Below, piece after piece: positions 13,387 through 48,265 of a stretch of 64,000 nucleotides of DNA; position 1 is the stretch's first letter, and every line of letters starts with the position of its first letter. The notes beneath the pieces are model-generated. The model made no database searches, was not told where the DNA came from, and saw only the letters and a program-made list of their open reading frames with translations. The translations under genes were made by a program, and so were the position numbers. Source of the DNA: Candidatus Krumholzibacteriia bacterium (GTDB lineage: Bacteria; Krumholzibacteriota; Krumholzibacteriia; LZORAL124-64-63); assembly GCA_041390065.1 (NCBI GenBank), contig JAWKQQ010000008.1, positions 251,846-315,845 of the forward strand, written 5' to 3'.

Positions 13387-14811
13387 ATGAGTCCTGTCCG
13401 GCCACCCGTCCTCGCCGGGACCTGGTACCCGGCCGACCCCGAGCGGTTGCGCGCCCGGGTGCGGGAGTACCTCGCCGCGGCCGACCCCGCCCGCCGGCCG
13501 CCGGGGCGGCCGACCGTCGTGCTGTCGCCGCACGCCGGCTATCGCTATTCCGGCCCCACCGCCGGCAAGGTGCTGGGACTCCTGCGCGGCCTGGAGTTCC
13601 GGGCCGTGTTCATCCTCGCGCCCAGCCATCGGGCCCACCTCGTAAGACCCGCCCTGCCGGCCGCGACCGGGTTCGCCACTCCGCTCGGCACCGTCCCGGT
13701 GGCCGGGGAGATCGTGGCCCGCCTGGCGGCCACCGGCGACTTCACGGTCGACGAGGCCGCCCACCGCGACGAGCACGCCGTCGAGATCCAGCTGCCGCTG
13801 CTGCAGGAGGCCCTGCCGGCGGGCACGCCCATCGTGCCCATCCTGGTGCCGCCCCTCGCGCCGGAGCTGCGCCGGGCCGCCGCCCGCGCCCTCGACCCCT
13901 ACCGCGACGGCGACCACCTGCTGCTGGTGTCGAGCGACCTCACCCACTACGGTCGAGCGTACGGCTACGTTCCGTTCACCGAGCACGTCGGCGAGCGCCT
14001 CGAGGAGCTCGACACGGGCGCCCTGTTGCGTATCCTCGCCCACGACTCCGAGGGCCTGCTCCGCTACGGACAGCAGACCGGCATCACGATGTGCGGCCTG
14101 GAGGCGGCCGCCCTGGCCCTGGACAGCCGCGAGCCCGGCCCCCACCACGCCGAGCTCGTCGACTACACCCGCAGCGCCGACGGCGACGGTGACCCGGACC
14201 TTTCGGTCAGCTACGCCGGGGTGCTCATCTGCCGCGACCCGGCGATCGCCGGGCTCAGCGACGCCGATCGACGGTTCCTCCTGACCCTGGCCCGGCGTTG
14301 CCTCGAGGCCGCCGTCCGCGGCGAGCCCGCCCCCACCCCCGCCGCGCTGGCCGCGGAGCTGGGCCAGGAGCTGTCGCCGGCGCTGAACGAGCGGCGGGGC
14401 GCGTTCGTCACCCTCCGGAGCGGTGGCCTTCTCCGGGGCTGCATCGGCTACATCGAGGGCCACGCGCCCCTGGCCGAGGCCGTGGCCGCCAACGCCCGCA
14501 GCGCCGCCCTGGACGATCCCCGGTTTCCGCCCGTGCGCCCGCAGGAGCTGGCCGGTCTGCACATCGAGGTGTCCGCACTGACCCGCCTGCGGCCCGTCGC
14601 AGGACCCGAGGCCATCACGGTGGGTCGGCACGGGGTGCTGCTGGAGAAGGCCGGCCGCCGGGCGGTGTTCCTGCCCCAGGTCGCACCGGAGCTGGGCTGG
14701 GACCTGCCGACGATGCTCGGCGAGCTGGCCCTGAAGGCCGGCCTCGGCCCTGATGATTGGCGGTCCGGCTGCCGCTTCCAGGTCTTCGAGGCCGAGATCT
14801 GCGAGGAATGA
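13387..14811 (+). CDS. MEMO1-family / AMMECR1-domain fusion protein (AmmeMemoRadiSam proteins B+A)
   Basis: N-terminal MEMO1-like (PVLAGTWYPADP..SPHAGYRYSG..SSDLTHYG). C-terminal AMMECR1 (RGAFVTLRSGGLLRGCIGYIEG..PRFPPV..FLPQVAPELGW). Confidence 0.75.
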   Translation: MSPVRPPVLAGTWYPADPERLRARVREYLAAADPARRPPGRPTVVLSPHAGYRYSGPTAGKVLGLLRGLEFRAVFILAPSHRAHLVRPALPAATGFATPLGTVPVAGEIVARLAATGDFTVDEAAHRDEHAVEIQLPLLQEALPAGTPIVPILVPPLAPELRRAAARALDPYRDGDHLLLVSSDLTHYGRAYGYVPFTEHVGERLEELDTGALLRILAHDSEGLLRYGQQTGITMCGLEAAALALDSREPGPHHAELVDYTRSADGDGDPDLSVSYAGVLICRDPAIAGLSDADRRFLLTLARRCLEAAVRGEPAPTPAALAAELGQELSPALNERRGAFVTLRSGGLLRGCIGYIEGHAPLAEAVAANARSAALDDPRFPPVRPQELAGLHIEVSALTRLRPVAGPEAITVGRHGVLLEKAGRRAVFLPQVAPELGWDLPTMLGELALKAGLGPDDWRSGCRFQVFEAEICEE

Positions 14812-14922: not shown

Positions 14923-16101
14923 ATGGGTCTTCTCGACAAGGTTCACCAGTTTCAGACGGCGCGCCAGCTCATGGCCGCCGGTCTGTACAATTACTTCCGG
15001 CCCATCGAGACCGCGCAGGAGAACACGGTCCGCTACAACGGCCGTGAAGTCATCATGCTCGGCAGCAACAACTACCTGGGCCTCACCAATCACCCCAAGG
15101 TGAAGGAGGCCGCCAAGGCGGCCCTCGACAAGTACGGCAGCGGCTGCGCCGGCTCGCGCTTCCTCAACGGCACCCTCGACGTGCACGTGCAGCTCGAGCG
15201 CAAGCTGGCCGACCTGGTGGGCAAGGAGGAGGCGCTGGTGTTCTCCACCGGCTTCTTCGCCAACCTGGGCACCATCAGCACCATGGTCGGCCGCAACGAG
15301 ACCGCGATCGTCGACCGCACCGACCACGCGTCGATCATCGACGGCTGCCGCATGAGCTTCGGAAACGTGCGCAAGTACAAGCACCAGGACATGGAACACC
15401 TCGACTACTGCCTCGAGCAGGAGCGGGACGTCAACAAGCTGGTGATCGTCGACGGCGTGTTCTCCATGGAAGGCGACGTGGCCAGGTTGCCGGAGATCGT
15501 GCCGCTGGCGAAGAAGCACGACGCCCTGGTGATGGTGGACGACGCCCACGGCGTGGGCGTGATGGGCAAGCACGGCCGCGGCACCTGCGACCACTTCGGG
15601 GTGACCGACGACGTGCACCTCATCGTGGGCACGTTCAGCAAGAGCCTGGCCTCGGTCGGCGGTTTCGTGGCCTCCGACGCCGACACCATCCACTACATCA
15701 AGCACCTGGCGCGGGTGATGATCTTCTCGGCGAGCCCCCCGCCCGCGTCGGTGGCCTCGGTGTCGGCCGCCATCGACGTCATGCTGGAAGAGGAATGGCG
15801 TCACGAGCAGCTCTGGCGCAACACGCGGATCCTCATGGAGCGCCTCCGGCAGGCCGGCTTCGACACCGGCCCGAGCGAGACCCCCATCATCCCCGTGGTG
15901 GTGGGCGGCGACGTGGAGACCTACCGCATGTGCGTCCGCTGCTGGGAAGAGGGCGTGTTCGTCAACCCGATCGTGTCGCCCGCCGTCGAGCCGGGCAACG
16001 CGCTGCTGCGGCTGTCGCTCATGGCCACCCACACCGAGGACGAGATCCACAAGGCCATGGACATCATGGTCAAGGTGGGCAAGGAAGTGGGCGTGATCTA
16101 G
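14923..16101 (+). CDS. spt: serine palmitoyltransferase (alpha-oxoamine synthase family, PLP-dependent)
   Basis: 392 aa. GTFSKSLASVGGFVAS PLP-lysine motif and ..MIFSASPPPASVASVSAAIDVM.. closely resemble bacterial SPT. Homologs with other functions in the same family (BioF, Kbl, CapB) are not fully excluded. Confidence 0.75.
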   Translation: MGLLDKVHQFQTARQLMAAGLYNYFRPIETAQENTVRYNGREVIMLGSNNYLGLTNHPKVKEAAKAALDKYGSGCAGSRFLNGTLDVHVQLERKLADLVGKEEALVFSTGFFANLGTISTMVGRNETAIVDRTDHASIIDGCRMSFGNVRKYKHQDMEHLDYCLEQERDVNKLVIVDGVFSMEGDVARLPEIVPLAKKHDALVMVDDAHGVGVMGKHGRGTCDHFGVTDDVHLIVGTFSKSLASVGGFVASDADTIHYIKHLARVMIFSASPPPASVASVSAAIDVMLEEEWRHEQLWRNTRILMERLRQAGFDTGPSETPIIPVVVGGDVETYRMCVRCWEEGVFVNPIVSPAVEPGNALLRLSLMATHTEDEIHKAMDIMVKVGKEVGVI

Positions 16102-16123
16102 CGACTCCGCGGCCGGTTCCGGT

Positions 16124-16156
16124 GGGGGCGGCTCGCTGGCCGCCCCCTTTCTTCTT
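16124..16156 (+). terminator. intrinsic terminator-like hairpin after spt
   Basis: GGGGGCGGC-tcgctg-GCCGCCCCC: perfect 9-bp GC stem, followed by TTTCTTCTT. Confidence 0.5.
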
Positions 16157-16286
16157 CATCCCGGCGCCGACGGCCAGGCGGCGAAGGCGCCGGGACGGCC
16201 GCCGCGGCCACCCGCCAACCCGACTCTTGCCATCGCGGCCCGTTGCAGGCACCCTAGCGGCATCACCCCCTCAGGAGGCTTCGCCG

Positions 16287-17411
16287 TTGAGCGTCACCGT
16301 CACCCCCGTCCGCGACAAGCGCGACCTGGCCCAGTTCCTGCGGATCCCCTACCGGATCTACGGCAAGAACCACCCCCAGTACGTGCATCCGCTGATCGCC
16401 CAGATGAAGGCCTTCCTCGACCCGAAGAAGAACCCGTTCTTCCGCCACGCCGACACGCAGCTCTGGGTGGCCCGCGACGGCGCCATCCCCGTCGGCCGCA
16501 TCGCCGCCTGCGTCGACGCGAGCAGCAACGAATACCACGACGAGCTCGTCGGCTTCTTCGGGTTCTACGAGGCCCCCGACGACCCCGAGGTGGCCCGGGC
16601 CCTGCTCACGACCGCCGCGAACTGGATCAAGGACCAGGGCATGGCCACCATGCGCGGCCCCGGGTGCTTCACCACCAACCACGACTACCTCGGCCTGTTG
16701 ATCGACGGTTACGAGCGTCGGCCCGTGCTCGGCATGCCGTGGCAGCCGCCCTACTACCGGCCGCAGTTCGAGCAGTTCGGCCTGGTCAAGGCCAAGGACC
16801 TGCTGGCCTGGGACTTCCGCGTCGAGGGCAACCGCATGCCCGAACGCATGGCGCAGTTCGCCGAACGCTTCGAGAGCCGCAAGGACTTCACCATCCGTGG
16901 GTTCCGCATGGACCGCTTCTGGGAAGAGGTGGAGATCGTGCGCGGCCTCTATTACGACGCCTGGAAGGACAACTGGGGCTTCGTCCCCCTCGACGAGGAG
17001 GAGTTCCGGCACCTCGCGAAGGACATGAAGAGCATGGTCGACCCGGGCCTGTTGCTGATCGCCGAACGCGACGGCGAGCCCATCGGCTTCTCCATGTCGA
17101 CGCAGGATTTCAACGAGGCGCTCAAGCCCCTGAACGGCGCCCTGCTCCCCTTCGGCTGGCTCCGGTTCCTGCTGGCCAAGCGCCACATCAAGGGCTGCCG
17201 GACCCTGCTGCTGGGCGTCAAGCCGGAGCACCGCCAGCGCGGGGTCGACACGCTGCTGGTCTACGAGAGCATCAGGTACGGCCTGACGCGGGGCTACGAC
17301 CACAGCGAGGCGTCCTGGATCCTCGAGGACAACGTGGCCATGAACCGCGCGCTCGAGAAGCAGGGCGCCAAGGTCAAGAACATCTACCGGATCTTCGAGA
17401 AGGACGTGTGA
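16287..17411 (+). CDS. GNAT-fold acyltransferase (candidate bacterial ceramide synthase, bCerS-like)
   Basis: TTG start preceded by AGGAGG. GNAT motif A LGVKPEHRQRGVDTLL. Stop overlaps the next start (TGATG). Confidence 0.55.
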   Translation: MSVTVTPVRDKRDLAQFLRIPYRIYGKNHPQYVHPLIAQMKAFLDPKKNPFFRHADTQLWVARDGAIPVGRIAACVDASSNEYHDELVGFFGFYEAPDDPEVARALLTTAANWIKDQGMATMRGPGCFTTNHDYLGLLIDGYERRPVLGMPWQPPYYRPQFEQFGLVKAKDLLAWDFRVEGNRMPERMAQFAERFESRKDFTIRGFRMDRFWEEVEIVRGLYYDAWKDNWGFVPLDEEEFRHLAKDMKSMVDPGLLLIAERDGEPIGFSMSTQDFNEALKPLNGALLPFGWLRFLLAKRHIKGCRTLLLGVKPEHRQRGVDTLLVYESIRYGLTRGYDHSEASWILEDNVAMNRALEKQGAKVKNIYRIFEKDV

Positions 17412-18417
17412 TGGCCGCGGCCGTGGTGGTGACCGGTGCGTCGGGGTTCCTCGGCAGCCACGTCTGCGACGTGCTCCTGGAGCGCGGCCTGGCCGTGCGC
17501 GCCGCCCACCGCGCGTCGAGCAACCTGCGTTGGCTCAAGGACAAGGACCTCGCGACCGTGTCCGTCGACCTCGCGCGGCCCGACGAGGCGCGGCCCTCGT
17601 GGACGGTTGCCGGGCCGTGGTCCACTGCGCCGGCGTGGTGATGGCCGACGCGGCCACCTACGAGCGGGTGAACGTGGACCTGACCCGCGCCCTGCTCACG
17701 GCCGCCGCCGCGGCCGGCACCGTCGACACCTTCGTCCTGATCAGCTCCCTGGCGGCCGGCGGTCCCGCCGGCCTGCGGCAACCGCGCGGCGAAGGCCAGC
17801 CCGACCGGCCCATCTCCCACTACGGCCGCAGCAAGCTGGCCGCCGAGGGGCTCCTCGCCGCCGGCTGGCCCTTCCGCACCGCGGTGCTGCGGCCCCCCTC
17901 GCTCTACGGCCCCCGCGACCGCGAGTTCGGCCCCCTGCTGCGCGCCGCGTCCCGCGGCTGGACCGCGCGTTTCGGCCGCGCGATGGACGGACTCAGCCTG
18001 GTGCACGGACGCGACGCGGCCGCGGCCGCCGTGGCGCTGCTCGACGCCCCCGGCGCGGTCGGCGTCTACCACCTGGACGACGGCCCCGGCCTCGACGGCC
18101 CCCGCGACCCGGGCCGCCGCTGGCCGTGGGGCTACGACTGGAACGAGTTGCACACCGCCCTGACCTGGCTGTTCGGCCGCTCCGTGCGCCGCCTGGAGAT
18201 CCCGCTGGGCCTGCTGCGCCTGGCGAGCCGGCTCGCGGGCGAGCGGCGCTTCCGTTCGCCCGTCCTGCACCCCGACCGCATCCGCGACCTCGACACGCCG
18301 GGCTGGGTGTGCACCGCCGAGCGTCTGCGCCGCGACACCGGCTGGCTGCCCGTCCACAACCTGGCCAGCGGCCTGCGCGACACCCTCGACTTCTACCGCC
18401 GCCGCGGGTGGATGTGA
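17411..18417 (+). CDS. NAD-dependent epimerase/dehydratase-family reductase (candidate ceramide reductase CerR-like; apparent frameshift near 17590)
   Basis: VVTGASGFLGSHV Rossmann motif in the first frame. The continuation in a second frame (from 17530) carries the catalytic YGRSKLAAE. Confidence 0.6.
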
Positions 18418-19379
18418 TGCGACGATTCCTGGCCGACCTGCGTCCCTGGCGACGCCCCTACGACTGGTACGGGATCATCTACGCCCTCACGTCGGCCTGG
18501 TATCCCCTGCTGCATCCGGACTGCTTCGAGGTCCTGGCGCAGCCGGGCCCCCTGCAGACTCCGTTCGGGCACCTGGCCGTCCACCTGATGGCCGCCCTCC
18601 TGATGTTCCTCGCACCGCCGGTGCTGCGCCGACGCGGCGGTCGGATCGGCCGCGTGTTCGGCCTCATCTACCTGCCGCTCCTGTTCGGGCAGTTCTACGG
18701 CGAGCTGGCGTACCTCGGGGTGGTCTTCCGCGACTACGGCCATTCCTTCGACCCCGCGCTCATCGATCTCGAGCAGGCCCTCTGCGGCCTGCAGCCGAGC
18801 CTCGCGTGGTCGCGGGCCTGGCCCTGGCCGTGGCTGCTCGAGCTCATGGAGTTCGCCTACTTCAGCTACTACGCGTTCGCGGCCCTCGGCCTGGGGCTGA
18901 TCTGGCTGGCCAGCGGCCGCGACACCGCCACGCGGTGGGCGAACTCCGAGGCGCTGGTGCGCGACCTCAGTGCCGTCATGCTCACCTGCTACGCCTGGTA
19001 CACGTTCTTCCCGGTCTGGGGGCCCAAGTACTTCGCGTACCTGGGCGTGGCCGGATCGGTCGAGAGCGAGGGGCTGCGGGGCTGGGTGTTCACCGACCTC
19101 ATGCGCTGGATCCACGCCCACGGCGCCCTGCAGGGCGCGGCCTTCCCGTCGAGCCACGTCGCGGGCAGCCTGGTGAGCTGGTGGTGGGGCTGGAAGGTGG
19201 CGCCGCGACACCGCGGCTGGCTCACCGGACTGTGGGTGCTGCTCTGCCTGAGCATCGTCTACTGCCGCTACCACTACGTGGTCGACCTGCTCGGCGGACT
19301 CGCGTGGGGCGCGCTGATCGTCTGGCTGGTGGCGCGGTTCGGGACGGCCGAACGCCCGCCGGTGGGCGGGCGTTCGTGA
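18417..19379 (+). CDS. PAP2-superfamily integral membrane protein (candidate sphingolipid head-group phosphotransferase)
   Basis: Start MRRFLADL overlaps the upstream stop (TGATG). Multiple TM helices. Motifs FPSSHVAG and CRYHYVVDLLGG match the SGH and HYxxD motifs of the PAP2/LPT family. Confidence 0.6.
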   Translation: MRRFLADLRPWRRPYDWYGIIYALTSAWYPLLHPDCFEVLAQPGPLQTPFGHLAVHLMAALLMFLAPPVLRRRGGRIGRVFGLIYLPLLFGQFYGELAYLGVVFRDYGHSFDPALIDLEQALCGLQPSLAWSRAWPWPWLLELMEFAYFSYYAFAALGLGLIWLASGRDTATRWANSEALVRDLSAVMLTCYAWYTFFPVWGPKYFAYLGVAGSVESEGLRGWVFTDLMRWIHAHGALQGAAFPSSHVAGSLVSWWWGWKVAPRHRGWLTGLWVLLCLSIVYCRYHYVVDLLGGLAWGALIVWLVARFGTAERPPVGGRS

Positions 19380-19427
19380 TCCTCGGCGACGAGAGACGCG
19401 GCGCACGGCCGCGTGAGCCTAGACGCC

Positions 19428-19643
19428 TCAGCTGAAACCGCTGCCGCAACCGCCACCGGGCGCGCCGCAACCACCCGACGCCGTCGCCCCGGCCTGGCCA
19501 GTGGCGAACGACGACAGCGCGCGCTGGACCTTCTGGCTGCCGCAGGCCGGGCAGACCGCTTCGCCGGCCTCGAGCGCGGCGTAGGTCATGAGGTCCTCGA
19601 ACGTGTGCCGGCACTGCTGGCACTCGAACTCGAAGATGGGCAT
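19428..19643 (-). CDS. FmdB-family zinc-ribbon protein
   Basis: MPIFEFECQQCRHTFE..CPACGS with CxxC..CxxC. GGAGGG RBS. Confidence 0.7.
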   Translation of the reverse strand: MPIFEFECQQCRHTFEDLMTYAALEAGEAVCPACGSQKVQRALSSFATGQAGATASGGCGAPGGGCGSGFS

Positions 19644-19670
19644 GTCAGATCCCTCCGGAACGGCCTCCGG

Positions 19671-19808
19671 TCAGTCGGACTTGCCGACCGCCGGGGCGGG
19701 TTGGCTGGCCTTGGCGTCCACGTCGCCGGCCGCGGTCCTGGCCTCGCCATCGAGCTTGCGGGCGTCGTCCTTCGCGTGCGGGTCACCGACCTCGCAGACG
19801 TTGGCCAT
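19671..19808 (-). CDS. hypothetical small protein (45 aa)
   Basis: Manual translation MANVCEVGDPHAKDDARKLDGEARTAAGDVDAKASQPAPAVGKSD. Its ATG overlaps the stop of the upstream small ORF (TGAATG). Confidence 0.2.
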   Translation of the reverse strand: MANVCEVGDPHAKDDARKLDGEARTAAGDVDAKASQPAPAVGKSD

Positions 19809-19892
19809 TCAGCCACCCTTGAAGCCGAGGCGGGGCAGCACCACGTTGAACAGCACCAGGTACGCCACGATGAACAGGGCTACCTCGAGCAT
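19809..19892 (-). CDS. hypothetical small hydrophobic peptide (27 aa)
   Basis: Manual translation MLEVALFIVAYLVLFNVVLPRLGFKGG (a single TM helix). Confidence 0.2.
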   Translation of the reverse strand: MLEVALFIVAYLVLFNVVLPRLGFKGG

Positions 19893-20111
19893 GCGCGATC
19901 TCCACTTCGATTTAGTATCTGCATAACTCATTGACTAAATGTAACGACGATTCCGGGGCTGTCAAGCCTCGCCGGTCATTCCGGAGTGTATCCTATCGGC
20001 CGCCGGCGGCCCGACGCGAGCGCGAAATCGCTGGCCCCTGGCCGCCGATGCCTTATGATTTGCCCAGTTCGTGCCCGAAGCGCCGCCCGCACCATCCGGA
20101 GGCCCCGTCCC

Positions 20112-21823
20112 GTGAGCGAAGCCAAGTTCCGCCGCACCCTCGTCACCGCCGCCCTGCCCTACGCCAACGGCGAGATCCACCTCGGCCACCTGGCCGGCGC
20201 CTACCTGCCCGCCGACTTCTACGTCCGCTACCTGCGGCTGCGCGGCCGGCCCGTGCTGTTCATCTGCGGCACCGACGAGTATGGCGTGCCCATCACGCTG
20301 ACCGCCGAACGGGAGGGCATCAGCCCCAAGGACCTCGTGGACCGCAACCACGAGTCGATCAGGCGCAGCTTCGAGGGCCTGGGCATCGCCTTCGACAACT
20401 TCTCGCAGACCAGCCGCCCCATCCATACCGAGACCGCGCAAGCCTCTTCAAGGACCTCCACGCCCAGGGCAAGCTGATCCAGAAGACGTCGCAGCAATTC
20501 TACAGCCCCAGCCAGAACCGGTTCCTGGCCGACCGCTACATCGAGGGCACCTGCCCCAAGTGCAGCAGCGCCGGCGCTCGCGGCGACCAGTGCGAGTCGT
20601 GCGGCAGCAGCCTCGACCCCACCGACCTCATCGACCCGCACGACGTGCTGCGCGGCGAGCCCCTGGAACTGCGCGACACCGTCCACTGGTACCTGCCGCT
20701 GGGCGACTGGCAGCCCCGGCTGGAGGAATTCATCGATGCCCATCCGGAATGGAAGGACAACGTCAAGCAGTACTGCCGCTCCTGGTTCAAGGACGGCCTC
20801 GGCGACCGCGCCGTCACCCGCGACATCGCCTGGGGCGTGCCCGTGCCCCTGCCCGACCACGAGGGTAAGGTCCTCTACGTGTGGTTCGACGCGCCCATCG
20901 GCTACATCTCGAGCACCCGCGAGTGGGCCCACGAGCAGGGCGATCCCGAGGCCTGGCGCGTGTGGTGGCAGGACCGCGAGACGCGCCTCGTCCACTTCAT
21001 CGGCAAGGACAACGTGGTCTTCCACACGCTGATGTTCCCGGCCATGCTGATGGCCCACAGCGAGCCCTGGATCCTGCCCGACAACGTGCCGGCCAACGAG
21101 TTCCTCAACCTCGAGGGCCGCAAGCTGTCCACCAGCCGCGGCTTCGCCGTGTGGCTGCCGGAGTATCTGGCGTCCTACCAGCCCGACCCGTTGCGTTACG
21201 TCATGGCCCGCAACCTGCCCGAGACTCGCGACATGAACTTCACCTGGGAGAACTTCCTGGCGCGCAACGACAACGAGCTGGGCAACAACTTCGGCAACCT
21301 CATCAACCGGGTGTTCACCTTCGTCCACCGGTACTTCGACGGCCTGGTGCCCGAATGGACGGAGGAGGCCATGCTGCCGATGGACCACGCGGTGCTCGCC
21401 GAGGTGGCCGAGCTGCGCGAACGGTGGGCGACCCACCTGGAGCGGTTCGAGGTCAAGGCAGCCATGGAATGCGCGTTCGCCGCCGGCCAGGCGGGCAACC
21501 GCTACTTCGACGAATCGGCGCCGTTCACCAGCCGCAAGACCGACCTCGTTCGCTGCGGCCAGAGCCTCGCCGTGTCCCTGCAGGTGCTGCGACAGCTGGC
21601 GCTCATGCTCGCGCCCATCTGCCCGTTCGGCATGGAGAAGCTCTGGCGGTGGCTGGGCATGGAGACGCCGCTGTTCTTCGGCGCCTGGGACGAGGGCCTG
21701 CGGCCCTTGCCGGCCGGACGCGAGCTCGGCCAGCCGGAGATCCTGTTCCCGCGCCTGGATCCGGACCTGATCCAGGCCGAGGTGGACCGGCTGCAGCAGC
21801 TGGTGGAGGACAAGCCCGCCTGA
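20112..21823 (+). CDS. metG: methionyl-tRNA synthetase (short form; apparent frameshift near 20443)
   Basis: GTG start after GGAGG. The N-terminus (..PYANGEIHLGHL..) is in the ORF frame starting at 19986. The remainder (..KMSKS-class body, WYLPL.., anticodon-binding domain) is in the frame of ORF 19931..21823. Confidence 0.85.
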
Positions 21824-36620: not shown

Positions 36621-38621
36621 ATGAAGACCCGCCTCGTGCTCGCCCTCGCGCTCCTGGCCGCCGCCGCCCTGCCCGCGGTGGCCCTGGTCCCCCGGAACAT
36701 CGTCGTGGAGATGGGCTCGGCCACCTGGTGAGGCTACTGCCCGCGCGCCCGCGCCGGTCTGCAGGTCCTGCACGACCGCTACGACACCATCGAGTTCGAC
36801 TCCATCGAGTACATGGCCACCAGCGGCGGCCTGGGCTGTCCCGACTCGGACACCCGCATCACCTACTACGGCAACAACGGCCTGCCCCACCTGCTCTTCG
36901 ACGGCGGTGACCTGATCGTCGGCGCCGGCACCGACGCCGTCGACGGCAGCGTCTACGACCCCGTGGTGCAGAAGCTGCTCGACGACGCCACGCCCGTGAA
37001 GATGACGATGTCCGACGTGGTGCTCGACCCCCTGGGGTCCTCATGCACGGTGACCCTGGAGCTCACCGACGACCTCGCGAGCAGCGACGCCATCTACCTG
37101 CGGGTCGCCATCGTGGAAGACCAGGTGACCTACGCGAGCACCACCTACGAGAACATCCTGCGCGACCTGCTGCCGGACGTGCCACTGACGATCAGCGAGG
37201 CCGGCCAGACCCAGGTCGTGCCCCTGGCGTTCACCTTCAGCGGCAGCTGGGTGGCGGCCAACTCCCGGCTGGTCGCCTTCGTGCAGCGTGACGCCGACAA
37301 GCGGGTCCTGCAGACCTGCAACTCGCGCCCCACGCCCGACCATTCCCTGCGCTACTACGCCCTCGGCGAGCGCACCGTGATCGCCGGCGGCGAGGTCGTG
37401 TTCGACGAGGCCGCGCTGTTCAACACCGGCAACCTGGACGACACCTACCAGGTGACGCTCGACACGGCGGCCCTGCCCGCCGGCTGGAGCGCCCACTTCA
37501 CCCACGACGCCGGCGTCGACACCGACCTCACCCTGCCCCTGGCCGCGGGCGCCTCGGCGGCGTTCCACGTGGTCATCGACGCCGTCGGGACCGGCGAGGG
37601 CCAGGTCACCCTGACGTTCACGCCGCAGAGCGGCGGCGCCGCCCCCCGCGCCATCACCTACAAGGTCATCACCCCGGGCACCGAGATCCTGATCGTCGAC
37701 GACGACGGCGCCTATGACTACGAGACCCGCTACTTCGCGCCGGCGCTGGCGAGCACCGGCCGCAGCTTCGCCATCTGGGACCGCAACTCGACCGCCGTAT
37801 CGGCGGCCGTCCTCGACAACTTCGACGCCGTGATCTGGTCGTGCGGCTGGGCCTTCCCCACCGTGGACGCCGACGACCGCGCCGCCCTCGCCAGCTACCT
37901 CGACGGCGGCGGCAATCTGTTCATCACCGGCCAGGACATCGGCTGGGAGATGGCCGATCAGGGCGGCGCCGCGCTCGCCTGGTACCAGACCTACCTGCAT
38001 GCCACGTACGTCGCCGACGACACCAACCTGCTCACCCTCCAGGGCGTGCCGGGCGATCCCATCACCGACGGCCTCAGCCTCGCGATTTCCGGCGGCGACG
38101 GCGCCGACAACCAGGAGTACCCCAGCGACATCGACCCCCGCGGCGCGGGCGCCTCGGTGATCCTCACCTACGACGCCAGCCGCAACGGCGCCATCAAGGC
38201 CGACACCGGGCTCTACAAGGTGGTCTACCTGGCCTTCGGCTACGAGGCCATCAACAACCCGGCCGACCGCGCGGCCCTCATGGCGGGCATCGTGGACTGG
38301 CTGCTGCCCGACCCGCTGGACGCACCCGGCAACCGGGTACCCGCCGCCACGGCCGTCCTCGGCAGCGCGCCCAACCCGTTCAACCCCATGACGGTCATCC
38401 GCTACGCCGTGGCGACCGAGGCCGACGTCACGCTCGGCGTGTTCGACGTGCGCGGGCGGCTGGTGCGGCGGCTGGACCAAGGCCGACGCGCGGTCGGCGA
38501 GCACGCCGCCCGCTGGGACGGACTCGACCAGACCGGCCAGGCCCTCCCGTCGGGGACCTACGTCTGCCGGATCGTCGGGTCGGACTCCGCGCCGGCGGTC
38601 AAGCTGATGCTCGTGCGGTAG
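36621..38621 (+). CDS. candidate selenoprotein: secreted thioredoxin-fold (W-U-G-Y-C) domain fused to a large domain and T9SS type-A C-terminal domain; in-frame UGA at 36729-36731
   Basis: ATG after an AAGGAG RBS, then signal peptide MKTRLVLALALLAAAALPAVA. NIVVEMGSATW-TGA-GYCP continues in frame into ORF 36813..38621, which has no signal peptide of its own. An fdhF-like SECIS hairpin lies at 36756-36777. C-terminus PNPFNPMTVIRY..GVFDVRGRLVRRL. Confidence 0.5.
36756..36777 (+). ncRNA. putative bacterial SECIS element (mRNA hairpin)
   Basis: GGUC-UGCA-GGUCC-UGCA-c-GACC: stem with apical loop GGUCC about 35 nt 3' of the UGA. Strongly resembles the E. coli fdhF SECIS upper stem-loop GGUUGCAGGUCUGCACC. 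Confidence 0.4.
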
Positions 38622-44537: not shown

Positions 44538-46343
44538 TCAGGGGGCGAGCGTGACCTTGCCCGTGATGGCGGCGCCCTCGGCCGTCGTGATCCGGTAGAG
44601 GTACACGCCGCCCGGCGCCCGCAGGCCCCGGTCGTCCCGTCCGGGCCACACGAGCGTGTTCGGGCCGGCCGCGATCGGACCAGCGGGTGTCTGCCAGATC
44701 CGCCGGCCCCGCAGGTCGTACACGGTCGCCCGGCCGACCGTGGCGGCGGACGACGTGAACTGCAGGGCGACCTGCGGGTTGCCCGGGTTCGGCCGCGGCC
44801 CGAGGTCGGTCAACCCGGCGGCTGCGGTCGTCGGTTCGACCGCCAGCGCCGTCATGGTCTCCTTGATGTGGTCGACGTTGATGTGACCGTCGACCGCGGC
44901 GTCGACGATGGCGACGTAGACCTCGCGGCCGTCGTACGGCACGAGGTCCCACCAGCGCTCGGTCATGGTCGTCTGCCCGTCGCCGGATTCACGGTAGATC
45001 ATGGTGTCCGTCGCGGCGTCCATGAGCGCCACGTAGCAGTGTTCGGGGTCGTCGGTGCCGCCGACCCGCAGGCTCATGCTGAGGCCCGTGATGACGAACG
45101 GATGGCTCCGCAGCGAGCCCGTGGCCGCCTCGCCGAGCATCTGGCCCGGCTGGCCGCGGCCGGACAGCGGCCCCTGGAAGTACTCCGCGGAGCCGAAGTA
45201 GCACGTGCCGACCAGACCCACGCTCTCCTCGCCGCGGCGCTTCGGGTTGTCGCCGAAGGTGGGATTGCCGAGCACGCTGTTGCCCGTGAACGCGGCGAAC
45301 TCACGCGCCAACGGCGGCGTCCGGTGCACCGTGGGCGCGGCCAGTCCCTCGCCGAACCGCAGGGTGTCGGTCCGGACCACGAACGCCAGCTGGCCCAGAT
45401 GAGGCTCGCTGAAGGGCGCGATGCGCGAGAGCAGCCACGACTGCCCGCCGTCGAAGCTGTCGACCTCGGGCGCGAGGCCCTGGTCGATGATGGTGCGGGC
45501 GGCGAAGCTCCAGGCGCCGGGCTCGTTCGCCGCCAGGTGGCTGATGCCCGAGGTCCCGTACTCGTGGAACAGGAGGTGATGCACTCCCTGCCGGACGATG
45601 TACTGGCTGCTCTCCAGGGACGCGGTCGGGGTGGCGCTGCCGTTGAGCAGGAAGACCTCCGGGTCGGTCCAGGCATGCACGGTGATCGCGGTCGCCATCG
45701 CCAGCGCGGCGCGTCCGCCCGGCAGATCGTTCGTCCGCACGGTGGTCAGCATGTGCCACTGCCCGTCCTCGACGTAGAGATACGGGTCGCGGCACTCGCT
45801 CCACTGACCATCCGGATCGTAGAAGAACTCCGGCGGGGCCGGCTCCTGCACCGGGTTCAGCGGCGACTTCGACCAGTTCACCAGATCGGTCGAGTAGGCC
45901 GTGCAGATGCGCTGGTTGGAGGCGTCATCCACGCCGGTGTAAGCCATCCACCAGAGGTGGGTGCCGGCATCGTAGACCACGTCCGGCGCCCACAGGGCCC
46001 GCGACTCGTAGGGCGCCGAGGACACCGCGAGCACCTGGACAGGCGGCGACCAGTGGATCAGGTCTCCGCTCGTGCTGTACCAGATGTGGTCCGACGATCC
46101 GGGATAGGGGTCGTCCATCGGGATGGCCCCGTAGTAGAGGACGTACAGCGTGTTCCACTTCACGAGGCAGAAGTCCCAGACCTGCCAATCGGGATGCACG
46201 TAGTACGGTTGCTCGAAGTCGATGACATGGAGCGCGTGGGCCCCGACGGCCGGCAGACCGAGCAACGCGAGCACGAGCAGGCCGCGCGCCACGGCCGGCA
46301 GGCCGAGGCGCGAGGTCGTGCGGGCGAGGACGCCGAGGGTCAT
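44538..46343 (-). CDS. secreted GH32-like five-bladed beta-propeller protein with T9SS type-A CTD (paralog 1)
   Basis: Signal peptide. PYYVHPDWQVWDFC..LYVLYYG..HIWYSTSGDLIHWS parallels the GH32 N-terminal blocks, but WMNDPNG is replaced by WQVWDFC. RDP is present in SECRDPYLY. C-terminus PNPGNP..VYDLRGRRIW..GVYLYRI. Confidence 0.5.
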   Translation of the reverse strand: MTLGVLARTTSRLGLPAVARGLLVLALLGLPAVGAHALHVIDFEQPYYVHPDWQVWDFCLVKWNTLYVLYYGAIPMDDPYPGSSDHIWYSTSGDLIHWSPPVQVLAVSSAPYESRALWAPDVVYDAGTHLWWMAYTGVDDASNQRICTAYSTDLVNWSKSPLNPVQEPAPPEFFYDPDGQWSECRDPYLYVEDGQWHMLTTVRTNDLPGGRAALAMATAITVHAWTDPEVFLLNGSATPTASLESSQYIVRQGVHHLLFHEYGTSGISHLAANEPGAWSFAARTIIDQGLAPEVDSFDGGQSWLLSRIAPFSEPHLGQLAFVVRTDTLRFGEGLAAPTVHRTPPLAREFAAFTGNSVLGNPTFGDNPKRRGEESVGLVGTCYFGSAEYFQGPLSGRGQPGQMLGEAATGSLRSHPFVITGLSMSLRVGGTDDPEHCYVALMDAATDTMIYRESGDGQTTMTERWWDLVPYDGREVYVAIVDAAVDGHINVDHIKETMTALAVEPTTAAAGLTDLGPRPNPGNPQVALQFTSSAATVGRATVYDLRGRRIWQTPAGPIAAGPNTLVWPGRDDRGLRAPGGVYLYRITTAEGAAITGKVTLAP

Positions 46344-46447
46344 GTCGGGGCGGCCTCCAGATGGAGGAGAGAATGCACCCTATCGGGGGTGCTTTCGGAG
46401 GATTCTATACGATTTCGTTCTGCGCGTGTGGCGATATCGTGATTTCA

Positions 46448-48265
46448 TCACGGGATCAGGGTCACCTTCCCCGAAACCGCCTCGCCGGCGCCGCCCGTGA
46501 TCCGGTAGACATAAACGCCGCCGGCGAGCCGGCCGCCGCGGTCGGACTCGCCCGACCAGCTGACGCCGTTGGCCCCGACCTGACCCTGCAACGGCCCGGA
46601 GCGCCAGACGCGGCGGCCGCGCAGGTCGTAGACGGCGGCGTCGACCGTGGCCGCACGCGCGAGGCTGTACCGGAGCGTGGTCCGGGGGTTGAACGGATTC
46701 GGCCAGGCGCCCAGGTCGCGCAGGCCCGTCGCCGGCGGCGCCGGCTCCGGCACGGCGGTGATCACGTCGTACGTTTCCTGGATCTCGTCGAGGTTGATGT
46801 AGCCGTCGTAGGCCGCGTCCTCGATGCGGAGGTAGACCGAGCGCCCCTGCAGATCCGTGACGTCCCACCAGCGCTGGACCATGGTCTCGGCGCCGTTGCC
46901 CGTGGTGCGGCGCAGCACGGTGTCGACGTCGGCGTCGCAGAGGGCGATGTAGCAGAGATCGGGCTGGTTGGAACCGCCGATGAGGAATCGGATGGCCGTG
47001 CCTTCGATCACGAAGTCGTGGCTGCGCAGGAAGCCGGTGGCCGAGTTGCCGAGCTCGATGCCGGCGGCGCCCCGGTTGGACAGCGGACCGCGGAAGTACT
47101 CGCGCGAACCGAAGTAGCTGTTGCCGACCGTGCCGGCCGGCGGATCGCCGCGGGCCGCCGGATTGTCGCCGAAGCAAGGGTTGCCCAGGCACATGCTGCC
47201 GCCGTAGGCCACGAAGTCGCGCGCCCACGGGTCGGCCCGGAACACCGTCGGCGCCACTGCACCCTGCCGGAACTGCAGCGTGTCGATCCGCGTCGCCACG
47301 CTGACGACCGGATTGACCGGCTCCTGGTACGGCGCCGCCCGCGACAGCAGCCAGGTCTGGCCGTCGTCGAAGGAATCGACCTCCGGAGCGATGCCCAGGT
47401 CGATCATCGTCCGCTCGTCGAACGACCAGCCGCCGGGCTCGGTGGCCCCCAGATGGGTGACGCCCTGGGAACTGTACTCATGGAAGAACAGGTGGTGGCC
47501 GCCGTTGATCTGATGATACTGGCTGCTCTCGAGGGCGTTGGCGGGCGTCTCGCCGGTGTTGAGCAGGAAGACGTCGGGCGCCGACCAGGCCTCGAGATCG
47601 TTGCTGGTCGCGTGCAGCAGGCTGCCCTGGCCCTGCGGCAGGCCGGGCGTCAGCGCCGACGCCAGGATGTGCCACAGGCCGCCCTCCCGGTACAGGAACG
47701 GATCGCGGCATTCCGCCCAGCCGGCGTCGGGGAAGTAGAGGAAGGCGTCACCCGAGGGCTGGAGCACCGGATTGACCGTGGACTTGGTCCAGACGTCGAG
47801 ATCGTCGGACCAGGCCAGGCAGATCCGCTGGTTGTTCAGGTCGTCGACGGCCGTGTAGGCCATGGCCCAGCGGCCCGAATCCGCATCCCACACCACGTCC
47901 GGCGCCCACACCGCCTTCGTCTCGTAGACCTCGTGAGACACCGTGACCGCGTATTCCGGCGCCCCCCAGTGGACGAGGTCGGGACTGGTGGCATGCCAGA
48001 TCACGTCCGATTCGCTCGGATGCGGGTTGGACTCGGGCACCGCGAGGTAGAAGATGTGGTAGAGGCCCTCATGCCGGATGAGGCAGAAATCCCAGACCTG
48101 CCAGCCGTCATGGACGTAGAAGGGCTGCTCGAAATCGATCGAGAGCAGCGCCGTGGCCGAGGCCGCCCAGCCGAGCCCCAGACACAGGACCAGCGACTTC
48201 AGCAGACGGCGCAAGAGGCTGCCGCGGACCGGCCGCGCGGGCGTCGAGGGATGGTTGCGGGGCAT
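46448..48265 (-). CDS. secreted GH32-like five-bladed beta-propeller protein with T9SS type-A CTD (paralog 2)
   Basis: Same architecture as 44538..46343 (FEQPFYVHDGWQVWDFC, AECRDPFLY, C-terminal PNPFNPRTTLRY..VYDLRGRRVW). Confidence 0.5.
   Translation of the reverse strand: MPRNHPSTPARPVRGSLLRRLLKSLVLCLGLGWAASATALLSIDFEQPFYVHDGWQVWDFCLIRHEGLYHIFYLAVPESNPHPSESDVIWHATSPDLVHWGAPEYAVTVSHEVYETKAVWAPDVVWDADSGRWAMAYTAVDDLNNQRICLAWSDDLDVWTKSTVNPVLQPSGDAFLYFPDAGWAECRDPFLYREGGLWHILASALTPGLPQGQGSLLHATSNDLEAWSAPDVFLLNTGETPANALESSQYHQINGGHHLFFHEYSSQGVTHLGATEPGGWSFDERTMIDLGIAPEVDSFDDGQTWLLSRAAPYQEPVNPVVSVATRIDTLQFRQGAVAPTVFRADPWARDFVAYGGSMCLGNPCFGDNPAARGDPPAGTVGNSYFGSREYFRGPLSNRGAAGIELGNSATGFLRSHDFVIEGTAIRFLIGGSNQPDLCYIALCDADVDTVLRRTTGNGAETMVQRWWDVTDLQGRSVYLRIEDAAYDGYINLDEIQETYDVITAVPEPAPPATGLRDLGAWPNPFNPRTTLRYSLARAATVDAAVYDLRGRRVWRSGPLQGQVGANGVSWSGESDRGGRLAGGVYVYRITGGAGEAVSGKVTLIP

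Follow-up and report, generated by a model that had tools for sequence, protein, structure and literature searches.

In the 64,000-nucleotide stretch of Candidatus Krumholzibacteriia DNA analysed here (the window), a PAP2-family gene at 18417-19379 stands last in an operon, behind three genes that resemble those for bacterial ceramide formation: spt (for serine palmitoyltransferase), bCerS (for the ceramide synthase of bacteria) and cerR (for ceramide reductase). The locus raises the question of what such a protein does at this place. An identical protein bears the database name 'phosphatase PAP2 family protein [Candidatus Krumholzibacteriia bacterium]', and a preliminary description of the DNA had put the gene product forward as a sphingolipid head-group transferase. 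Our results support this candidacy, through the first rank of Aur1, the catalytic subunit of yeast inositol phosphorylceramide (IPC) synthase, in profile and fold searches, and through the linkage of the gene to spt. The protein appears to belong to a widely distributed new subfamily, well supported by genomic context and predicted fold, and its most likely function, judged by analogy, is that of a ceramide phospho-head-group transferase.

The PAP2 protein and its likeness to Aur1

The gene is an open reading frame (ORF) free of stops that encodes 320 aa. Its GC contents at codon positions 1, 2 and 3 are 0.67, 0.50 and 0.94 (the last is GC3), a profile typical of real genes in this window of 70% GC. 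The start is backed by 26 homologues, the N-termini of which align at Met1. As described before, it overlaps the stop codon of the cerR-like gene: the TGA lies at 18415-18417 and the ATG at 18417-18419, so that they share 1 nt in TGATG. The family assignment made earlier is borne out as well. The protein matches Pfam PAP2_3 (PF14378) at 51.2 bits (threshold 27) over the full length of the profile (3-190 of 190) and Pfam PAP2 (PF01569) at 29.6 bits (gathering threshold 27.2), and all of 22 distant members of the subfamily also match PAP2_3. The reported FPSSHVAG is found at residues 243-250 and includes His247; alongside FPSSH, the protein carries CRYHYVVD, and the segment CRYHYVVDLLGG (residues 283-294) includes His286 and Asp290. 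The gene and its motifs are as follows.

18417-19379, + strand: integral membrane protein of the PAP2_3 family and LPT fold, 320 aa, eight predicted transmembrane (TM) helices, candidate ceramide phospho-head-group transferase
19011-19028, + strand: conserved motif P-V-W-G-P-K (residues 199-204) of a predicted periplasmic loop, at the position of the phosphatase C1 motif (KxxxxxxRP)
19146-19157, + strand: C2 motif P-S-S-H (residues 244-247), with His247 on Aur1 His255
19266-19286, + strand: C3 motif R-Y-H-Y-V-V-D (residues 284-290), with His286 and Asp290 on Aur1 His294 and Asp298

The subfamily is large, with at least 849 homologues at E ≤ 0.001 and, in a second search, at least 1070 at E ≤ 1e-10. 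A homology search seeded with members from outside the Krumholzibacteria returned only proteins with generic names from uncultured metagenome-assembled genomes (MAGs); the search thus connected the subfamily with no cultured organism of known lipid composition.

A profile built from 26 homologues was searched against the PDB sequences. The best match was yeast Aur1 (E 6.6e-5), followed by a B. subtilis PgpB-type phosphatase (E 0.0037). The hidden Markov model alignment places His247, His286 and Asp290 onto His255, His294 and Asp298 of Aur1, and the C2 motif P-S-S-H onto PSLH. Among 79 subfamily sequences, the triad H247, H286, D290 is invariant, P-S-S-H is 100% conserved, and the spacing between the C2 and C3 histidines is 39 residues in 78 sequences, the same as from 255 to 294 in Aur1. 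The C3 region reads S-T-V-Y-C-R-Y-H-Y-V-V-D in the window protein and S-T-M-Y-L-T-H-H-Y-F-V-D in Aur1. A regular-expression search found the phosphatase C1 motif KxxxxxxRP in 0 of the 79 sequences; the equivalent loop is P-x-x-G-P-[KR], wherein P199 and G202 are conserved in all, P203 in 91%, and residue 204 is Lys or Arg. The residue six before the C3 histidine is Thr (89%) or Ile and not the Arg of the phosphatases, and this C3 Arg is absent from every one of the 79. E142 is a further invariant residue.

The AlphaFold (AF2) model of the window protein, with a predicted local distance difference test (pLDDT) value of 87.4 and a predicted template modelling score (pTM) of 0.88, contains eight TM helices. 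Compared with the PDB by Foldseek, it matches the ceramide-bound IPC synthase 9vj4_A first, with template modelling scores (TM-scores) of 0.57/0.64 over 294 columns, then the Aur1-Kei1 structure 9ivc_A and then human SMSr (8ijq_A); soluble and membrane phosphatases rank lower. The same ranking was obtained with a second model (pLDDT 85.8), that of a Limisphaerales member 31% identical to the window protein; for the two models the TM-scores with Aur1 lie at 0.57-0.64 over about 295 columns. The comparison with the SMS/AUR1 enzymes in topology and motifs that the preliminary description had proposed hence gives the same answer in the profile search, in the aligned triad and in the fold ranking of two models. 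Meanwhile, the N-terminus and the junctions TM2/3, TM4/5 and TM6/7 contain 5, 6, 3 and 3 Lys or Arg residues, and the other loops contain few. This positive-inside pattern predicts that both termini are cytoplasmic and that the triad is periplasmic. Aur1 likewise has eight TM helices, an N-in/C-in orientation and an exoplasmic active site (PMC12122681), and on the models the predicted periplasmic triad is the bacterial equivalent of its luminal site.

Linkage to sphingolipid genes

The three genes that precede the PAP2 gene in the window are as follows.

14923-16101, + strand: spt, alpha-oxoamine synthase resembling serine palmitoyltransferase, with which the operon begins (Pfam Aminotran_1_2, E 2.4e-61)
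16287-17411, + strand: bCerS-like acyltransferase of the GNAT type, candidate for the bacterial ceramide synthase (its C-terminal part matches Pfam Acetyltransf_1)
17411-18417, + strand: cerR-like NAD(P)-dependent epimerase/reductase, candidate for the ceramide reductase, frameshifted by 1 nt (Pfam Epimerase, E 9.5e-14)

All four genes are co-directional. The stop of the bCerS-like gene and the start of the cerR-like gene at 17411 overlap in TGATG too, and the stop/start overlaps at 17411 and 18417 indicate co-translation. The best NCBIfam match of Spt is the CFB-type serine palmitoyltransferase model (NF047600), whose cut-off of 640 bits is not reached by the score of 574.6 bits; the KBL and BioF models give 386-419 bits, well under this score. 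The start of the bCerS-like gene was set at TTG 16287, which is preceded by AGGAGG and agrees with the N-terminus of the orthologue at locus L001. The cerR-like gene stood in the preliminary description with its overlap, and both remain; its extent had to be revised, the true start being at 17411 and the frame shifting by 1 nt between 17582 and 17595. As far as family type and synteny indicate, the three enzymes would make (dihydro)ceramide. No inositol or head-group genes were found by Pfam annotation in the window, about 30 further genes included.

We scanned one genome per GTDB species with the two conserved peptides of the subfamily as query and confirmed at least 594 relatives. The best 80 loci of these, on which all linkage counts rest, were searched with the window's Spt, bCerS and CerR. 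At the 61 loci with enough upstream DNA, spt lies beside the PAP2 gene, within the flank, in 54, and cerR is immediately upstream of PAP2 in 52 of these 54. The co-occurrence with spt that had been proposed as a check is therefore present in several phyla, and the linkage to undecaprenyl pyrophosphate or lipid A genes, which had been named as evidence to the contrary, was not seen in the 80 loci.

The loci fall into two groups. Group A (31 loci, 47-69% identity) carries the labels Krumholzibacteriia, 'uncultured Fibrobacteraceae' or unclassified bacterium. The order spt-bCerS-cerR-PAP2 is present in all 23 of its loci that have at least 3.6 kb upstream; the other eight end at a contig edge, where six of them still show cerR or bCerS. 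As to the names, many close relatives are from binchicken MAGs labelled 'uncultured Fibrobacteraceae bacterium', yet their gene order from Memo through spt to MetRS is entirely that of Krumholzibacteriia records, so the labels look inconsistent. Group B (49 loci, 31-39% identity) comprises Verrucomicrobiota, Gemmatimonadota, 'delta-proteobacteria', KSB1, Victivallales, Brocadiaceae and Spirochaetes. Among its informative loci, 38 in number, spt is present in 31 and one or more sphingolipid genes are present in 34. Four arrangements occur in the group.

spt-cerR-PAP2: 12 loci
spt-cerR-PAP2, with bCerS convergent downstream: 11 loci
spt-bCerS-cerR-PAP2: 9 loci
cerR-spt-bCerS-PAP2: 1 locus

In 33 loci a bCerS-like gene stands with spt and cerR in the gene order of the window, and one verrucomicrobial locus consists of an isolated spt-cerR-PAP2 operon flanked by unrelated, oppositely oriented genes. 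All-against-all clustering of the ORFs of the 80 loci left spt, bCerS, cerR and PAP2 as the only families common to both groups; no kinase, CDP-alcohol transferase or inositol-phosphate synthase was common to both in this clustering. Minor clusters near PAP2, of 3-5 loci each, are a Gfo/Idh/MocA-like oxidoreductase and an ABC ATPase. The ABC-transporter ATPase gene lies within 10 kb of PAP2 in three loci outside the Krumholzibacteria (L034 18401-19177, L046 10734-11516 and L080 6461-7240), where it might belong to a lipid exporter or be a coincidence.

Comparison with known enzymes and proposed mechanism

Among the systems compared, Aur1 (PDB 9vj3, 9vj4, 9ivc) is the best match in profile and fold, and both proteins belong to Pfam PAP2_3. 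They share the triad with its 39-residue spacing, the C3 context S-T-x-Y-x-x-x-H-Y-x-V-D, the lack of C1 and, on the models, an N-terminal domain in addition to a 6-TM catalytic core. However, the window protein comes from a bacterium and its gene shares an operon with spt, it has R284/Y285 at the positions of Aur1 T292/H293, and the absence of inositol-lipid genes near the locus implies that the donor is probably not phosphatidylinositol. No partner like Kei1, the obligate regulatory subunit of the Aur1-type IPC synthase, is evident and no fifth conserved gene accompanies the module, although no search aimed at Kei1 was made.

A bacterial enzyme of the Aur1 type has been characterised: BT_1522 of Bacteroides thetaiotaomicron is an Aur1 homologue that adds phospho-inositol to dihydroceramide (2022, PMC9246714). 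The NCBIfam model of this enzyme (NF052609, phosphoinositol dihydroceramide synthase) is the commonest NCBIfam match among the 22 distant relatives (10 of 22, best E 4.3e-8), far under the cut-off, and the window protein reaches 14.8 bits (E 0.015) against a cut-off of 480 bits, which puts it in a different subfamily. In addition, BT_1522 is encoded in a cluster of inositol-lipid genes at a distance from spt; the subfamily of the window has its place in the spt operon, where inositol genes are absent.

In the case of the sphingomyelin synthases SMS1/2 and the related SMSr (PDB 8ijq), the third-best fold match, the C3 motif H-Y-x-x-D is shared. SMSr has six TM helices instead of eight, however, the TM-scores are lower (0.27-0.44), and the window protein has S-S-H in place of the S-G-H-T of SMS. 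The SMS consensus is C-G-D-x3-S-G-H-T for D3 and H-Y-T-x-D-V for D4; the window protein departs from both with P-S-S-H-V and H-Y-V-V-D-L, and its score with the SMS-type Pfam family PAP2_C (PF14360), 20.2 bits, is below the threshold of 27. The chemistry of SMSr, which joins ceramide with phosphatidylethanolamine (PE) (PMC12122681), is nevertheless a plausible model for the window enzyme. Caulobacter also decorates a bacterial ceramide with phospho-head groups, in a ceramide-phosphoglycerate pathway that employs the ceramide kinase CC_1160 and partners encoded in a cluster with spt (PMC11324152). This route uses the kinase and several further enzymes, none of which is a PAP2 protein and none of which is conserved with the window module. 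Finally, the phosphatases of the PgpB/YodM, LpxE and UppP types have the same 5-TM LPT core, triad and periplasmic active site, but they carry C1 KxxxxxxRP and the C3 arginine (S-R-x5-H-x3-D), both lacking in the subfamily of the window; they are also shorter, without N-terminal helices that align to Aur1, and are found in other genomic contexts.

In the mechanism that we propose, ceramide from Spt, bCerS and CerR would reach the outer leaflet of the inner membrane, which the PAP2_3 protein would span with eight TM helices, its two termini being cytoplasmic and its triad at the periplasmic face. By analogy with Aur1, His286 activated by Asp290 would attack the phosphodiester of a bulk glycerophospholipid, with release of diacylglycerol and formation of a phospho-head-group-enzyme intermediate; His247 would then activate the C1-OH of ceramide, which would accept the phospho-head group to yield ceramide-phospho-X (for the mechanism and triad of Aur1, see PMC13133130; for the triad also PMC12122681). 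With PE as donor the product would be ceramide phosphoethanolamine, and with phosphatidylglycerol (PG) it would be ceramide phosphoglycerol. PE or PG is favoured as the most economical guess, since the module is not accompanied by inositol, kinase or CDP-alcohol genes. The last ceramide step of Caulobacter, that of CerR, is reported to be periplasmic (PMC11087976), and a periplasmic hand-over is assumed here from Caulobacter because the CerR of the window has no obvious signal peptide.

Alternative functions

We consider that the PAP2_3 protein is probably an Aur1/SMS-like lipid phosphotransferase completing the pathway of the three preceding genes, by analogy with the enzymes above; the narrower proposal, that the subfamily is a bacterial ceramide phosphoethanolamine (or phosphoglycerol) synthase, is tentative and held with a little less than even confidence. 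Several observations weigh against transfer to ceramide. The similarity to Aur1 is remote, with 14-16% identity and a Foldseek E of about 2e-3, and LpxE and YodM reach target-normalised TM-scores of 0.59-0.64, the LPT core being common to true phosphatases. The conserved basic residues K/R204 and R284 near the motifs could bind a phosphomonoester. An undecaprenyl pyrophosphate phosphatase model of NCBIfam is weakly matched, far under its cut-off, by 7 of the 22 distant members, at a magnitude similar to that of the phosphoinositol dihydroceramide synthase matches (10 of 22), and the public names of subfamily members are all generic ('phosphatase PAP2 family protein'). Seven of the 38 informative Group B loci have no spt within 10 kb. 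In the window itself, the cerR copy is frameshifted and, as said, its product lacks an obvious signal peptide.

Hydrolases and transferases have the LPT core and the triad in common, and K/R204 and R284 are close to the site; two other activities come into consideration. One is that of a lipid phosphate phosphatase with, as its substrate, a phosphorylated sphingolipid intermediate such as ceramide-1-phosphate, a sphingoid-base phosphate or ceramide-phosphoglycerol-phosphate made by enzymes encoded elsewhere. Most bacterial members of the PAP2 superfamily are phosphatases with an identical triad, eukaryotic sphingosine-1-phosphate phosphatases are PAP2 proteins, the two conserved basic residues are near the active site, and UppP, LpxE and PgpB models of NCBIfam are weakly matched; but the C1 motif and the C3 Arg, with which phosphatases bind the phosphomonoester, are missing from all 79 sequences, neither a kinase nor a CDP-alcohol transferase is conserved with the module, and transferases come first in both fold and profile searches, so we regard this function as unlikely. 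The other is a phosphotransfer like that of LpxT, in which undecaprenyl pyrophosphate, or a different pyrophosphate lipid of the periplasm, would donate a phosphate to ceramide and so give ceramide-1-phosphate without a kinase. As far as is known, LpxT-type enzymes keep the full C1-C3 phosphatase motifs, unlike the PAP2 subfamily, which lacks C1 and the C3 Arg, and the nearest fold is that of Aur1 and not of PgpB or LpxE; it seems quite improbable on these grounds, even though the predicted active site is periplasmic, seven distant members show the weak undecaprenyl-diphosphate phosphatase matches, and LpxT is reported to be a PAP2 enzyme with phosphate-transfer chemistry (PMC2904496).

The generic annotation and the weak LpxE, PgpB and UppP matches would also suit a housekeeping PAP2 enzyme (an undecaprenyl pyrophosphate, phosphatidylglycerophosphate or lipid A 1-phosphatase) that merely lies beside ceramide genes. 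Such a neighbourhood by chance is very improbable, as the adjacency of spt and cerR is kept over several phyla, in four gene orders and between unrelated flanks, the stop/start overlaps point to co-translation, and the neighbourhood in the 80 loci has no conserved genes for cell wall or lipid A. The frameshift in cerR might finally be seen as a sign that the operon is decaying in this genome and that its PAP2 gene has no current role. The Rossmann N-terminus MAAAVVVTGASGFLG is in the frame of 17411 (ATG), and the other 275 codons follow that of 17530; the L001 orthologue, in which cerR is intact, is 71% identical on each side of the shift. The gene for methionyl-tRNA synthetase (MetRS), 0.6 kb downstream, is likewise split, with the N-terminal part containing the HLGH motif in the frame 19986-20477 and the rest in the frame 19931-21823. 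Because this essential gene is broken as well, both frameshifts are probably assembly indels and not gene decay. Moreover, all four genes of the operon keep a GC3 of about 0.9 and full-length similarity to their orthologues, and decay is hardly credible.

Precedents and significance

The genes spt, bCerS and cerR have now been found in dozens of phyla (PMC11334938), and the enzymes that turn ceramide into a mature phosphosphingolipid are known only for the inositol lipids of Bacteroides and the kinase route of Caulobacter. An uncharacterised, 'phosphatase'-labelled family that accompanies spt and cerR across phyla is a directly testable candidate for the missing step in many uncultured lineages. 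We found no literature linking a PAP2 protein to bacterial spt or cerR, although the supplement of Stankeviciute 2022, which was outside the search, may mention the neighbour; nor did the searchable literature contain a gene assignment for a bacterial ceramide phosphoethanolamine (or phosphoglycerol) synthase. The notability claimed for a bacterial PAP2 protein dedicated to ceramide was overstated, given the precedent of BT_1522 (PMC9246714) with its model NF052609, and the present case is not a conceptual surprise, since both the chemistry and a bacterial precedent exist. If the proposed function is correct, spt-bCerS-cerR-PAP2 would be a self-contained four-gene phosphosphingolipid module of at least five mostly uncultured phyla, and its last protein would represent, in bacteria, the 8-TM architecture of Aur1 without the need for a Kei1 partner. 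It could also serve as a simple model, from bacteria, for Aur1 as a target of antifungals, and the annotation of several hundred proteins would improve. Meanwhile, 14923-19379 holds a complete spt-bCerS-cerR module in a Candidatus Krumholzibacteriia genome; nothing was found in the searchable literature on sphingolipids or sphingolipid genes in Krumholzibacteria.

Surroundings of the operon

The 3' end of the operon is marked by a gene outside the pathway, which is found in the same place in loci L081 and L082.

19428-19643, - strand: small, convergent Zn-ribbon gene (Pfam Zn_ribbon_8, E 3.9e-14)

A 173-aa ORF that follows PAP2 at 19413-19934 was rejected as spurious, as it has no Pfam match and the real Zn-ribbon gene is on the other strand. 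A 676-aa fusion of CerR and PAP2 (P0122, L082 6001-8031) was likewise set aside as Rosetta-stone evidence; it is most likely an indel artefact, since spt and bCerS of L082 are shattered into fragments of 54-162 aa.

Within the operon, a GC-rich hairpin with a 10-bp stem, followed by a T-rich run, is found at 16124-16147, 23 nt past the spt stop, in the 185 nt that separate spt from bCerS. An attenuator or terminator internal to the operon is a possible role; a scan for terminator-like sites found 1 where about 1.5 are expected by chance, which makes the evidence for such a role weak. Directly upstream of spt, 13387-14811 encodes a Memo-AMMECR1 fusion protein of 474 aa. This neighbourhood is kept in most of the Krumholzibacteria-like loci and in no other phylum, and in L081 the two domains are separate genes.

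Farther downstream, two adjacent paralogous genes at 44538-48265 encode proteins of about 600 aa each with a GH32 N-terminal domain. At least one of them has a FlgD_ig C-terminal domain, which is also present on the 602-aa Omp28-like protein encoded at 36813-38621.

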